Shown piece after piece: positions 36,167 to 64,000 of a stretch of 64,000 nt of DNA; positions within the stretch are counted from its first letter, which is position 1; each line of letters opens with the position of its first letter. Origin of the DNA: Octopus vulgaris (Eukaryota); assembly GCA_951406725.2 (NCBI GenBank), contig OX597830.1, forward strand, positions 15,190,001 to 15,254,000, written 5' to 3'. The translations under genes were made by a program, and so were the position numbers. Below the pieces are notes generated by a model that was given only the letters and a program-made list of their open reading frames with translations, searched no databases and was not told where the DNA came from.

Positions 36167-36785
<619 letters not shown>

Positions 36786-36935
36786 TTACAGTACGACTAC
36801 AAGTTTCAATATTTTGCACTAATGCAGCCACACGGACAAAAAAGTACAAATCACCATTTAATGGCTACGCATGTGCAAAAACACGTAATACAAAAATGTC
36901 CAAACGAATGCACACAGTAATAATTAAAATACGTA

Positions 36936-37877
36936 AGGCGGCAAAACGTTATCTCGCCGTGCGAAATGTTTAGCAGTATTTCATCTACCTTCACGTTCTG
37001 AGTTCAAATTCCGCTGAGGTCGACTTTGCCTTTCATCCTTTCGGAGTCGATTAAATAACTACCAGTTACGCACTGGGGTCGATGTAATCGACTTCATCCG
37101 TTTGTCTGTCCTTGTTTGTCCCCTCTGTGTTTAGCCCCTTGTGGGTAGTAAAGAAATAGGTATTTCATCTACCGTCACGTTCTGAGTTCAAATTCCGCTG
37201 AGGTCGACTTTGCCTTTCATCCTTTCGGGGTCGATTAAATAACTACCAGTTACGCACTGGGGTCGATGTAATCGACTTCATCCGTTTGTCTGTCCTTGTT
37301 TGTCTCCTCTAGCCCCTTGTGGGTAGTAAAGAAATAGGTATTTCATCTACCGTCACGTTCTGAGTTCAAATTCCGCTGAGGTCGACTTTGCCTTTCATCC
37401 TTTCGGGGTCGATTAAATAAGTACCAGTTACGCACTGGGGTCGATATAATCGACTTAATCCGTTTGTCTGTCCTTGTTTGTCCTCTCTGTGTTTAGCCCC
37501 TTGTGGGTAGTAAAGAAATAGGTATTTCATCTGCCGTCACGTTCTGAGTTCAAATTCCGCCGAGGTCGACTTTGCCTTTCATCCTTTCGGGGTCGATTAA
37601 ATAAGTACCAGTTACGTACTGGGGTCGATATAATCGACTTAATCTGTTTGTCTGTCCTTGTTTGTCCCCTCTGTGTTTAGCCCCTTGTGGGTAGTAAAGA
37701 AATAGGCATTTCGTCGATCTTTACGTATTGAGTTCAAATTCCGCTGAGGTCGACTTGTCTTTTATCCTTTCAGGGTCGATAAATTAAGTACCAGTTGTAT
37801 ACTGGTGTCGATTTAATCAACTGGCCCCCTCCCCAAAAATAATCTTGGCCTTGTACCTAGAGTAGAAAAGAATAATT
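36936..37877 (+). repeat. Tandem array of SINE-B bodies (one head plus five units, period 184/178/184/184 bp)
   Basis: Units start at 36977, 37161, 37339, 37523 and 37707; junction AAGAAATAGG|TATTTC. Confidence 0.95.
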
Positions 37878-37886
37878 AAAATGCGT

Positions 37887-38108
37887 GAAGCAGCGAATTT
37901 GCAGAGTCGTTAGCACGTCGGATAAGGCGCTTAGCGACATTTCGTCCGTCTTTATGTTCTGAGTTCAAATTCCGCCGAAGTCGACTTTGTCATTTATCTT
38001 TTCGTGGTCGATAAAATAAGTACCAGTGGGGCATTGGAGGACGATATAATCGATTTACTCCCTCCCTTGGAATTGCTGGCTTTGTGCCAAAATTAATTTG
38101 AAACCAAT
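37887..38108 (+). mobile_element. SINE family B (tail type 2)
   Basis: Matches other B copies. Confidence 0.85.
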
Positions 38109-38182
38109 ACGGAAAATACTTAAAGCAATGAGAGCACATAATTCATAGTTTAAGAAACAATTTGTCTCTGTTTATATGTTAA

Positions 38183-39209: not shown

Positions 39210-39290
39210 ATATGTTTCTTTATTAGCCACACAGGGCTGCACACAGATAGAACAAATTACAAGGTAGAGCTTTTCTTTTGAAGGTTTAAG

Positions 39291-39328
<38 letters not shown>

Positions 39329-39607
39329 AAGGGGGAGTTTCGATCAAAAGGGATCGTAAAAGGAGAGAAAGAGGACAAAAAAAGGGGGTTTAAAAAAAAG
39401 GGGGGAGGAAAAAAATTGATCAATAGGGATCGTTATCACAGAAATGTCAATATGAAGTGTAAAGGGGAGGACAGGTGAGGTTTACCCGTGGAAAGAAAAG
39501 CCTACGGAAAAGACCACGGTAACCTCGGTCAATGAAGTCACATTTTATATTTCTTTTTTTTTTTTTTTTTTTTTTGCAAATAAGCAACTCTCTGTTTTCG
39601 ATTTCTG
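39210..39607 (-). mobile_element. Tx1/L1-like LINE 3' UTR fragment (copy 1)
   Basis: Ends GCCCTGTGTGGCTAATAAAGAAACATA followed by TCTATCTA; homologous to copies 2 and 3. Confidence 0.8.
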
Positions 39608-39711
<104 letters not shown>

Positions 39712-39714
39712 TAG

Positions 39715-40987
<1,273 letters not shown>

Positions 40988-56182: not shown

Positions 56183-56608
56183 GGATCTTTTCGGTTTGAA
56201 CGGCAGTTTTTTCTAGCGGTGTCATATGAAATTGTCACCCATAATTATGACCCTAGAAACGATCTATTGCATTTCAATCTCTTTTAGGGTTAGGGTTAGT
56301 TAGGGTTAGGATTAGGGTTAAGGTTGGGGGTGGTGGAAGGGTATATTTTTTTTCTTCACAAATGTAAATAAACCCAATCTGTTTCTTAAACGAGGGACAT
56401 ATTCATACGATACAGAATGTTTTTTTTTTACCTCAATAGACGTCACTGATTGGTTGAAATTGCAAAAATTGAAGAAACTATAGAATTTTCTCAATAAAGC
56501 CAAGAGAAAAAGATGTTTTATAAACACATTCTACCAGTATACGAAGTTCAAAATTTTTTAGTTACCAAGAAATTATGTTAAAAACTGCCGTTCAAACCGA
56601 AAAGATCC
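56183..56608. mobile_element. Second copy of the Merlin-like MITE with TTAGGG repeats
   Basis: Perfect TIRs; TSD CGGTACAA at 56175-56182 and 56609-56616. Confidence 0.92.
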
Positions 56609-56914: not shown

Positions 56915-57870
56915 TTTCTGAAGGCCTGAAATTTTGGGGTTGGGAACAAGTCGATTGCATCGACCCCAGAACTCCACTGACACTTACTTTATCGACTCCG
57001 AAAGGATAAAAAAGGCAAAGTCGACTCTTAGGGGAGTTTGAACTCAGAACATAAAGACGGACGAAATGCCTATTTCTTTACTACCCACAAGGGGCTAAAC
57101 ACAGAGGAGACAAACAAGGACAGACACACGGATTAAGTCGATTACATCGACCCCAGTTCGTAACTGGTACTTATTTAATCGACCCCCGAAAGGATGAAAG
57201 GCAAAGTCGACCGCGGTGGAATTTGAACTCAGAACGTAAAAGCAGATGAAATGCCTATTTCTTTACTATCCACAAGGGGACAAACGAATTAAGTCGATTA
57301 TATCGGCCCCAGTATTTCACTGGTACTTATTTAATCGACCCCCGAAAGGATGAAAGGCAATGTCGACCTCGGTGGAATTTGAACTCACAACGTAACGGCA
57401 GACGAAATACCGCTAAGCATTTCGTCCGGCGTACTAACGCTTCTGCCAGCTCGCCGCGGGCAGAAATACCTATTTCCTATTTTTTTACTACCCACAAGAG
57501 GCTAAACACAGAGAGGACAAACAAGGACAGACAAACGGATTAAGTCGATTATATCGACCCCAGTTCGTAACTGGTATTCAATTTATCGACCCCGAAAGGA
57601 TGAAAGGCAAAGTCGACCTCGGCGGAATTTGAACTCAGAACGTAAAGACACGAAATACCTATTTCTTTACTACCCAAAAGGGGCTAAACACAGAAGGGAC
57701 AAACAAGGACAGACAAACAGATTTAAGTCGATTACATCGACCCCAGTGCTCAACTGGTACTTACTTTATCGACCCCGAAATGATGAAAGCCAAAGTCAAC
57801 TCGGAGGAATTTGAACTCAACTGCCTCTTAGCATTTTGCTCTGCGTGCTTACGATTCTTTCAGCTCGACG
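56915..57870 (-). repeat. Tandem array of SINE-B units (five bodies, one internal full head)
   Basis: Junctions GAAAT(G/A)C|CTATTTC at ~57069, 57254, 57469 and 57658. Confidence 0.93.
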
Positions 57871-58874: not shown

Positions 58875-59516
58875 GCTTCAAATTTTGGCACAAGGCCAGC
58901 AATTTCCGTGTAGGGAATAAGTCGATTGCATCGACCTCAGTGTTCAACAGGTACTTACTTTATCGACTCCGAAAGAATGTAAGGTAAAGTCAACCTTGGC
59001 GGAATTTGAATTCAGAATGAAAAGGCGGGCGAAATAGCGCTAAGAATTGTGCTCGGCAAACTGACGATTCTGCCATCTCGAAGCCTTAGCGATTGATAAG
59101 TATATTGATATCAAATTTTGGCACAGGATCAGCAATTTCCTGGGAGGGTAAGTCGATTACATCGACCCCAGTGCTCGACTGGTACATATTTTATCGATCC
59201 CGAAAGGAAGGAAGGAAGGCAAAGTTGACCTCAGCGGAATTCGAACTCAGTACGTGTAGACGAACGAAATGCCACTAAGCATTTTTCCCGGCAAGCTAAC
59301 GATTCTTTTGTACTCTAGGCACAATGCCCGACATTTTTGGGGCGGAAGCAGTCGATTAGATCGACCCCAGTACACAACTGATACCTAATGTATCGACCCT
59401 GAAAGGATGAAAGGCAAAGTCGACCTCGGTGGAATTTGAACTAAGAACATAAAGACAGACGAAATACTGCTAAGCATTTCGCCCGGCGTGCTAACGTTTC
59501 TGTCAGCTCATTGCCT
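58875..59516 (-). mobile_element. Three clustered SINE-B copies (tail type 2)
   Basis: ~58875-59085, 59110-59305 and 59305-59516. Confidence 0.85.
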
Positions 59517-61899: not shown

Positions 61900-64000
61900 G
61901 AGCTTTGAAAGAAGGTGACTTGAAGAGATTGTCAACGCTACGAGCTTTATTTTTCATGTACTGGACTAGTCCGACGACTTCTTGGCAGGTATCTACCGCA
62001 ACTGACAGTAGAACAGGAAAATCCCCATTTTCCTATGTCGAGGAGAGGATACGAACAACGGAGACCACATTGGTAGTTTTTGGCCTCTACTCCTGCTGAA
62101 CGCTGGTATGGAGATTTTGGCCAAGGTGTAAGTAAAGATGGCACTTGTTGGGAAACTGATTAGTGATGCAAAGACATGCACTATTCCGAACAGATCTACC
62201 CAGAGCAATGTCCACTTCATGTCAGATACCATAGAAATTGGATGAGGAACTTGGTAGTGAGGTACTTATCTTAGGGCAGTCGAGAGTTTTCGATTGGATT
62301 CACCACCTATCCTTAGTGCCGGTCTTCACAACTGCTGGTTCTGGTCCCGCCTTCAGATGCTGGATTACTGCAATGTACAACGATTTCTGCTCGAGAATTA
62401 GAACGAATGGTTACATATCGAAACCATTCAGCATGAATATTTCGATCCGTCAAGATTGTCATCCCTTATCTCTTCTGTATGTAACGGATTCCTGAACCGC
62501 TACTACAAATGCTAGAGACATTGGGAGGTAACCCTGTTAACTAGGGTGAGGAAGATCTAACTTGACATATGCGGATGGCGATACAGTTGTAGTGTCAGAC
62601 ACCAGGCGCATCCAAGTGATTGGCTCCGTTCTAAGGGAGTTCGAGGAAGTGGCAGAAACCAAAATTAAACATGAAATATCAGTGGATATGCAATGCAGTC
62701 CCAGGTAAGGCAGGTGTCCCAGGTAAGACACGTCGCAGGGTGGCAGATAGACGGGGCAGTATATTTGCTCGATGTCTGATATGGTACGCGTCTCCAAGTG
62801 CTATGTCACATATGGAAAAAAAAAAACTATGAAAAAAAACGCATCTGGCAAACGCCGCAATCCGGTCAGGCGGTAATATATGACGGAGGCGACGTGGGCG
62901 TTCGCCGTCACTGCTCAACCTATTTGTCTACTACCCACAAGAGAGGACAAACAAGGACAGACATAGGTATTAAATCGATTATATCGACCCCAGTGCGTAA
63001 CTGGTACTTAATTTATCGACCCCGAAAGGATGAAAGGCAAAGTCGACCTCGGCGGAATTTGAACTCACAACGTAACGGCAGACGAAATACCGCTAAGAAT
63101 TTCGCCCGACGTGCTAACGGTTCTGCCAGCTCTCCGCCACTGCTCAAACATTTAGAGACAACTTTCTGTTGGTCCATTTCGGCGTGAGACTGGACACCCT
63201 ACACGTCACCTCGATCAGGTCCGATAGGCGTAGTTGAGGTGACGAGTAGGGTATCCAATCGCACACAGAAATGGACCAAAAGAAAGCTGGCTTTAAATGG
63301 TTGAGCAGCGGTGACGAACGCCTACATCGCCTCCATCATATATTACCGCCTGACCGGATTGCAGCGTTTGATTTTCTGCTTCATGTGGAAAAATCCGGCA
63401 CTCCATTTACTGTCAACATCCGAGGCATGCTGTGACTGATGATGCGCAAACATACGCCGAGGTTGCGACATCACCAGTCACTCTTTGACAGGGTATAATC
63501 ACCGTTTGTCAGATGTGGTTTTTTTTGGTTTTTTTGTCATAGTTCGACTCTTTCACAGAACGGCAGTCCTAGATAAAGAAAAGCCCGATTCCAGGCGTTT
63601 GGCATCTGGAATGTCGTTAAGCGCTCAAAATCCTCTACCAGTTGGGCCATGCGGTCACTGGAAGTTCAACGTTAGCGTTTTATAGAGGATTATTGGTGAG
63701 CAACAGTGACGACGTACTCGGGGAAACCCTGGACATCGACGAAAATGAAACCAGCTACTCTGCTTCGGAGGACTTTCGGGTTTGGACCGATAATTAATTT
63801 CCAGAAATCGATTACCAGTGCCACTGTGAAGGAACTCTACAAGCAAAGAAGTACCGTCAGCCGGGCACACGCAGGATGACTCGTTTTGCACGCGCTCGTC
63901 CAGTACCTAAACATTGCTGACTTGTGGACTTATGTCGAACACCAGATGCGTGAGAAGGAGAACCAGTCTTTGCTATTCTGGTGGCCTTAGCGAAAGAGTA
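61900..64000 (+). mobile_element. Decayed Tx1/L1-like LINE ORF2 (RT to zinc knuckle)
   Basis: LLLNAGMEILAKV; PNRSTQSN; QSRVFDWIHH..GSGPAFRCWITAMY..NGYISKPF..IRQDCHPLSLLYV; YADG (cf. YADD); WTKRKLALNG; VLHALVQY..DLWTYVE, homologous to 40079-40540. Confidence 0.88.
62919..63138 (-). mobile_element. SINE family B (tail type 1) with TSD
   Basis: ACTGCTCAA duplicated at 62910-62918 and 63139-63147. Confidence 0.92.

Follow-up and report, generated by a model that had tools for sequence, protein, structure and literature searches.

Joining of a SINE subfamily to its own family at a fixed nucleotide in Octopus vulgaris, likely by target-primed insertion and local duplication

In this study, we found that copies of a SINE subfamily of Octopus vulgaris with the 3' end named tail-1a are joined to other copies of their own family at one fixed position, nucleotide 48. 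We consider it probable that this joining occurs by target-primed insertion into older copies, that the resulting dimers are then duplicated locally, and that the array at 36936-37877 of the window arose from one inserted unit. The window is the whole 64-kb stretch of DNA that was analysed (positions 15,190,001 to 15,254,000 of contig OX597830.1), and it contains about 25 SINE copies or fragments.

Methods

Counts were made with exact patterns over the 2.8-Gb genome of 227 contigs, and reversed control patterns gave 0 matches unless noted. Site A denotes SINE nucleotide 48 and site B the A-box site at nucleotide 15. Most other analyses used loci fetched for holding a junction, an array, a nested head, a monomer or a LINE, and the frequencies among them are not genome frequencies. 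This locus set grew from 873 kb (127 composites) to 1.72 Mb (1,217 bodies and 239 composites). Two gapped pattern searches caught only indel-bearing copies (72 and 30) and were used as a source of loci, not of counts. The tree of units comprised 46 rows, namely both arrays of the window, 8 other arrays and 12 monomers drawn at random.

Results

Structure of the array at 36936-37877

The array is a composite of a SINE head, four near-identical tail-1 units of 178-184 bp and one older tail-2 unit, all on the plus strand and all inside one 16-bp target-site duplication (TSD). The arrangement of one head, four tail-1 bodies and a final tail-2 body in the initial annotation was therefore confirmed, with the head at 36937-36974 and the units reaching 37870; TRF reported a period-184 array at 36976-37822 with 4.6 copies and 92% matches. 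The left TSD copy (36919-36934) has one mismatch to the right copy (37871-37886); the initial annotation does not mention this duplication. Between them lie the tRNA-like head (36935-36974; AA and then SINE nucleotide 1 at 36937), unit 1 (36975-37158), which begins at site A and consists of a body with B box and core followed by tail-1a, the headless body and tail-1a units 2 (37159-37336), 3 (37337-37520) and 4 (37521-37704), and unit 5 (37705-37870), an older body with tail-2 that is 15% from the tail-1 consensus and is the putative target copy. Unit 2 is 178 bp long owing to a 6-nt deletion and is nearest to unit 1 (2.2%), while unit 4 branches earliest among the four. The head differs from the consensus at 5 of 33 scored positions and has a 9-nt deletion removing most of the A box; this diverged and deleted head may be old. 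The restart had been placed about 41 nt into the SINE. It is indeed a fixed point, but its real position is nucleotide 48, with the GG belonging to the target, and the figure of 41 resulted from the 9-nt deletion in this particular head.

Units 1-4 are 2.2-5.4% apart, compared with 9.8% between arrays, and form one clade (support 91/76) with the ladder-like order (((1,2),3),4), in agreement with the initial view that adjacent units share private variants and that local duplication contributes. Since the four tail-1 units descend from one unit, the array is likely the product of one insertion and three duplications, not of four insertions. A plain exchange of the inserted body with the old one does not account for the first duplication, because unit 4 lacks the 5' variants of unit 5.

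Four public contig sets were also compared with the locus; the repeat swamped the comparison, none of the contigs spanned the array, and neither an empty nor a pre-insertion allele was observed. In organisms B and D, contigs extend over the left flank and the head with its deletion into the start of unit 1, so the left end of the array predates the lineages of these two organisms. In organism C the summed contig depth of tail-1 relative to body was about four times lower than in organisms B, D and E (0.15 vs 0.54-0.60; window 36600-38180, runs X2, X8, X16 and X17). As contig depth is not copy number, this difference is a weak hint that the tail-1a burst was limited to some lineages.

A second composite, on the minus strand at 56915-57870, has four tail-1a units and an old last unit, with junctions starting at 57659, 57470, 57255 and 57070. 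The junction thus does recur four times here, as had been noted, although the four are not all alike: the sequence of the first array's fourth junction, GGCATTTC, is read at 2 of them. Nor are all units headless, as a copy with a full head is nested there, beginning at about 57457 and bordered on either side by the site-A sequence, the order being junction, 11 nt and full head. The four tail-1a units are 8.8-16% apart and scattered in the tree and, judged from these distances, they are independent of each other. A short interstitial (TTAGGG)n tract of 8 copies lies at 56284-56329 of the window.

Junctions are concentrated at one nucleotide

The 22-mer spanning the junction has 36,404 exact copies in the genome (control 0), which bears out the earlier argument for a mechanism rather than chance, and three junctions in succession gave 3,791 overlapping matches genome-wide. 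Tail-1a ends number 90,570 by exact match (control 155), and 40% of them carry the site-A junction. The restart at nucleotide 48 clearly dominates for this subfamily, with 36,404 junctions at site A and 318 at site B, whereas the sister subfamily tail-1b has 2,984 junctions at site B and 843 at site A; the odds ratio of this preference is about 400, somewhat inflated by duplicated units. On the antisense strand of the SINE, a look-alike of site A accounts for 549 exact junctions. Restart points are not random in unselected DNA either: among 38 tail-1 ends in the 264-kb stretch around the window, 23 restart at nucleotide 48, 3 at nucleotide 15, 1 at the antisense site and 11 in non-SINE DNA. 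In the passage that gives his criterion, Kojima regards a retroposon as target-specific when more than 20% of its flanks are one repeat type (PMC4494074); with duplicated units included, the share is 40% in the exact genome-wide count and 23 of 38 in the unselected stretch.

The junction is self-complementary, as the initial annotation pointed out. A role of this palindrome is not supported, since folding compared with shuffled sequences gave z values of -0.09 and 0.00, no better than chance, and a junction hairpin as a functional element was accordingly rejected as no more stable than the shuffles. When the head is intact, a 12-bp stem forms at the anticodon position, and the 3' arm of this stem begins with site A.

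Two related arrangements were observed. Tail-1a copies lie in the antisense strand of other SINEs, at a site resembling site A, and form inverted pairs (L025/L029 and other loci). At 59150-59500 of the window (minus strand), a tail-2 copy runs straight into another SINE at the A box, the place used by tail-1b (site B).

Full-length copies at site A carry duplicated targets

A strict pattern requiring a full head directly after the site-A sequence matched 145 times in the genome. In the first 30 of these 145 rows (28 loci), 23 repeat the same 13 or more bases (at least 13) after the tail of the inserted copy, and in 13 rows non-consensus variants of the target are duplicated on both sides. The other 7 of the 30, including one tail-2 insert, one truncated copy and several with altered tail ends, were not scored as site-A duplications. 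Two further nested cases were met unsought, at L021 and in the second array of the window. These are independent insertions at the same nucleotide with a TSD, as Kojima asks for, into targets that differ in subfamily and age. Because full-length copies there carry a duplicated target, often with the target's own variants, site A behaves as a true insertion site, and self-targeted insertion at a fixed site is well supported. Junctions are themselves reused, since seven of the scored nested rows sit at an existing junction. Nested copies with a TSD are a small minority.

Outside site A, the left TSD copy of tail-1a-type ends, which is purely genomic, starts with GG in 17 of 34 cases by eye, several of them being the antisense SINE site; the corresponding counts for tail-1b and tail-2a are 0 of 14 and 0 of 36. 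With a stricter script the comparison was 10 of 20 vs 0 of 4 (p 0.11). A correction of the right TSD copy toward site A by the RNA template was considered and rejected (5 vs 2, p 0.45).

Tandem repeats of 64-66 bp made of a head plus the site-A TSD were found at several places (G000:C10:17996023-17996504; L039/L040; L060). They are a second kind of mini-satellite, one that nested insertions can seed.

Ages of units, heads and flanking duplications

Among the 239 composites, the last unit is tail-2a in 68, tail-1b in 46, tail-1a in 33, tail-2b in 32, an unassigned tail-1 in 27, tail-3 in 16, unclear in 12 and tail-1a2 in 5, and tail-1b accounts for only 5 of 400 internal units. Last units are about as diverged as stand-alone copies of the same type (tail-2, 10.0% vs 11.0%; tail-3, 15.0% vs 14.5%). 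First and middle units are 5-6% diverged; paired with the last unit, they were lower in 87 of 126 pairs and higher in 31. For tail-2a, last units have 8.9% and first units 5.5% divergence, with 35 of 42 composites in that direction. The proposal that tail-1 units were added inside an older tail-2 copy thus holds insofar as young units sit on older tail-2, tail-3 or tail-1b bodies. It does not hold for the number of insertions in the first array, whose tail-1 units are one clade, nor for the head, which is mostly as young as the inserted unit and not that of the old copy.

Heads of seamless composites are 7.6-8.4% diverged over their whole length, compared with 7.3% for tail-1a heads and 11.8-16.5% for old stand-alone heads, and in only 3 of 92 cases does the first unit still have the 5' body variant typical of the target. 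Since seamless composites carry a young head, either replacement of the old head or whole copying of read-through RNAs is needed. A target-derived head was rejected, as head divergence did not track that of the last unit (rho 0.05, n 172).

In the case of whole copying, rare nested insertions would be transcribed into read-through RNAs (new head, body, tail-1a, old body and old tail) that are retrotransposed whole from the distal tail with a new TSD, and targeting would only found the sources. Heads and first units that are young throughout fit this, and, as four consecutive T are absent from all three consensus sequences, read-through by Pol III would be possible. The TSDs of tail-2a-ended composites also look young, 19 of 43 being within one mismatch, compared with 29 of 66 (44%) for tail-1a ends and 8 of 27 for stand-alone tail-2a, differences that are not significant. 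An apparent excess of mismatches around tail-2a composites in a first look (1.67 vs 0.9, 13 cases), which would have meant old TSDs, was gone with more loci and with RNA-side bases skipped. On the other hand, composites ending in the oldest tails (tail-2b and tail-3) lack young TSDs, with 1 of 18 flanks within one mismatch (p 0.002 against the 44% of tail-1a ends), and in 16 composites with a 5'-truncated upstream unit neither kind of TSD was found in any, including one matching the distal end. Sibling composites were likewise absent among 61 tail-2a and 25 tail-2b last units, in a test that has moderate power for tail-2a and more for the older tails. No pair of the 61 shares more than 3 rare variants, the two pairs with 3 are 14% and 20% apart, and the raw distance is below 0.6 of the star expectation in 10 of 1,830 tail-2a pairs and 7 of 300 tail-2b pairs. 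The absence of siblings and the poor TSDs of the oldest tails favour head replacement, while the young TSDs of tail-2a allow whole-RNA copying; as a general explanation we regard such second-generation copying as unlikely. Complete head replacement, which insertion in place needs, was seen directly nowhere in the analysed loci.

Switching between RNA templates appears improbable to us. The reverse transcriptase would start on an old-type SINE RNA, stall at the 12-bp stem and jump to the 3' end of a tail-1a RNA, and the chimera would be pasted once. The young heads and the position of site A at the first base of the 3' arm of this strong stem would agree with such a jump. It leaves unexplained, however, the nested copies that keep the old head and have a duplicated target, as well as the GG-starting TSDs in other DNA and the antisense site, and it requires RNA from many different copies that are 9-16% decayed.

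Growth of longer arrays

Most loci are dimers, and arrays of 6-11 units exist elsewhere in the genome; the term satellite used in the initial annotation is suitable for a minority of long arrays only and not for most loci. Two or more rare variants are common to adjacent tail-1 units in 8 of 49 dimer pairs and, in longer arrays, in 14 of 53, 41 of 77 and 74 of 114 pairs (random 1.6%). At the 5' end, middle units are more like the downstream neighbour (22:11 and 50:25), and at the 3' end more like the upstream one (47:36, 39:28 and 42:15), which is the pattern that unequal exchange predicts. In 31 arrays with an old last unit, the 5' end of the penultimate unit comes from the last unit in 14 and is tail-1a-like in 15. 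Because 13 of these 15 tail-1a-like penultimate units are unrelated to their neighbour, repeated insertion occurs too. Phylogeny of units gives both outcomes within the window, one clade in the first array and scattered units in the second.

Over 73 arrays, units are 6.4% apart within and 9.8% between arrays, a likeness within arrays of the sort used to recognise SINE-derived satellites (sSats); 24 arrays are under 5% and 18 over 8%. A general growth toward the 5' side was rejected, as first and last pairs share variants equally (1.87 vs 1.94, 63 arrays) and only the array at 36936-37877 is a 5'-ward ladder. Some arrays, of ten and nine units, have variant patterns that alternate in the manner of small higher-order repeats (L107-L110, G000:C1:10.40 Mb; L122).

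A circular or multimeric one-unit RNA, rolling or jumping repeatedly and giving each array in one event, is compatible with the fixed restart point and with the likeness of units in long arrays, where 48% of 180 adjacent pairs agree at all diagnostic sites. As the founding step it is largely refuted, and we give it very little probability. None of 22 dimers agrees at all 9 diagnostic sites (random 4%) and only 2 of 49 are less than 5% apart, so dimer units were not born identical and no rolling circle made them. In addition, 27 of 49 tail-1 dimers end in the other subfamily, the array at 36936-37877 is a ladder and not a star, and the junction hairpin is not significant. The spread of one or a few pre-formed dimeric masters, with internal unit number varied later, would agree with TSDs flanking whole composites, but it is excluded, and the least probable of all, because the last units are older than the first units, of at least five types and mutually unrelated, without clustering.

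SINE identity and candidate partner LINE

The intact head folds as a cloverleaf (z -2.75) and the consensus has motifs which we take to be A- and B-box-like, while Rfam and ARAGORN gave no match. The copies are dispersed and numerous, with 90,570 exact tail-1a ends, and have TSDs of 12-18 bp, as is usual for tRNA-derived SINEs. Of the last 44 nt of tail-1, 37 match the 3' end of a LINE with endonuclease, RT and zf-RVT domains, as in SINEs that share the tail of a LINE. The composites are not Alu-like dimeric SINEs, which have arms of one age and few masters. At many loci, copies with tail-2b often end in (TTA)n runs or lie within them, and SINE heads are frequently located after such runs, so that full-length copies form chains.

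The matching LINE is represented in the window by a 5'-truncated copy at 39716-40534 (minus strand), which comprises the zf-RVT end of ORF2 and the 3' UTR and is a candidate relative of the partner. Near-identical copies of its family are numerous (150 of 24,552 candidates were scored), and the family includes an intact frame of 1,159 aa with endonuclease, RT and zf-RVT domains in Pfam. From these copies, this L1/Tx1-type family looks currently active. The Tx1 clade label is our assumption; the analysis itself saw the Pfam domains and a microsatellite target. Because the copies end in, and sit in, (TATC)n, the LINE of the window is a relative and not the proven partner. Related, more diverged LINE families are also present in the genome. 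At site A no LINE was found, the 30 inspected of 33 matches being SINE tails without LINE sequence upstream, and 49 bodies with neither a head nor tail-1 upstream had no common foreign tail by eye. Elsewhere in the window, several 3' ends of the abundant near-identical family are stacked in (TATC)n at 39211-40740 (minus strand), and at 61940-64000 (plus strand) and beyond there is a decayed copy of a LINE that is broadly of this kind but more distant, with pieces of 30-52% identity.

Discussion

According to the insertion model that we prefer, full-length copies first insert at site A with a target duplication of 13-19 bp, as the nested copies show. The head end of the cDNA, homologous to the head of the target, would then anneal and replace the old head, leaving a seamless junction as proposed for melanogaster-type R1, and read-through RNAs of nested copies, re-copied whole, probably contribute a share. 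The junction regenerates site A, so that more copies can land at the head or at a junction, and the variant patterns show that unequal exchange or slippage between units enlarges many arrays. The enzyme would come from an L1/Tx1-type LINE, and the choice of site would be aided by base-pairing of the RNA's read-through trailer with the nicked target. Pairing between target and RNA at the priming step has been shown for L1 (PMC3649969).

More tentatively, it is possible that the SINE carries its own targeting address. After an ancestor of tail-1a had reached site A, its read-through RNA would have carried a copy of site A at its end. This trailer would pair with the nicked site in any relative, the matching head would pair with the other side, and sister subfamilies whose tails are nearly identical would home differently, tail-1a to nucleotide 48 and tail-1b to nucleotide 15, through inherited trailers and not through enzymes. 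The element would thereby cover the front part of its relatives without a seam, and each copy made in this way would be a further source with the same trailer. If true, this would be a heritable, RNA-encoded and self-reinforcing choice of target in a non-autonomous element, seeding satellites of preset unit.

The system offers a countable path from a dispersed SINE to tandem DNA, since the boundary of the unit is the insertion site and a single genome offers dimers, trimers and 11-mers for comparison. In its own family the SINE has a very large, self-renewing landing pad; host DNA would be spared in this way, and old bodies would acquire young promoters. Because the two subfamilies differ in their sites, they allow a direct test of whether RNA-DNA pairing, and not the LINE endonuclease, sets the target. 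In annotation, what look like 'composite SINE families', tens of thousands of them in such genomes, would be products of insertion and not families.

A full-text literature search returned no paper on a SINE that targets its own family at a fixed site; the original OR1/OR2 paper, supplements to published papers and Repbase/Dfam entries may describe composites. In the 2026 Octopus vulgaris repeat annotation (PMC13282606), the passages on SINE, tandem, satellite and RTE sequences do not mention such arrays. The Octopus OR1/OR2 CORE-SINEs and MetaSINEs, as described in the relevant passages (PMC4824008, PMC5804259), likewise have a tRNA-derived head, a shared core and exchangeable LINE-derived tails; this likeness is one of description and does not establish a family name.

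The closest known systems each share part of this behaviour. SINEU-3/Tx1-Mar of crocodilians, in the account of Kojima (2015, PMC4494074), has a fixed target in another repeat, a TSD of about 16 bp, sequential tandem insertions and an inferred Tx1-clade partner. The target there is a DNA transposon and the tandem copies are separated by the TSD, whereas the octopus SINE has its target in its own family, shows no seam on the 5' side at most junctions, and comprises sister subfamilies that differ in their site. Melanogaster-type R1, in the parts of Stage and Eickbush (2009, PMC2718515) that concern its junctions, also has two outcomes at one site and tandem arrays at the regenerated site: the junction is precise when the upstream target sequence in the RNA anneals to the target, and otherwise a TSD and then duplicated upstream sequence are found. 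However, R1 is an autonomous LINE in 28S rDNA that replaces 9 bp, whereas in the octopus the replaced sequence would be 47 nt long, the head of a member of the SINE's own family, and the dispersed loci concerned would number tens of thousands.

Among SINE-derived arrays, squamate sSat1-3, as summarised by Vassetzky et al. (2023, PMC10702118), consist of tandem units that do not reach the length of the SINE, are led and trailed by SINE parts, and are more uniform when the arrays are longer. The array at 36936-37877, with three middle units, falls short of the at least four middle monomers shorter than the SINE that define an sSat. The origin given for sSat1-3 is unequal recombination or chance re-insertion, whereas in the octopus TSDs mark the boundary of the unit as an insertion site, and the loci are mostly dimers. 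The TSD1-(SINE)n-TSD1 arrays of another mollusc, the clam Scapharca broughtonii, in the description available in PMC11481361, also have one head, headless repeats and one TSD pair around the array. Their internal tails are truncated and only the last is complete, whereas in the octopus all internal tails are complete and the last unit is often of an older, different subfamily.
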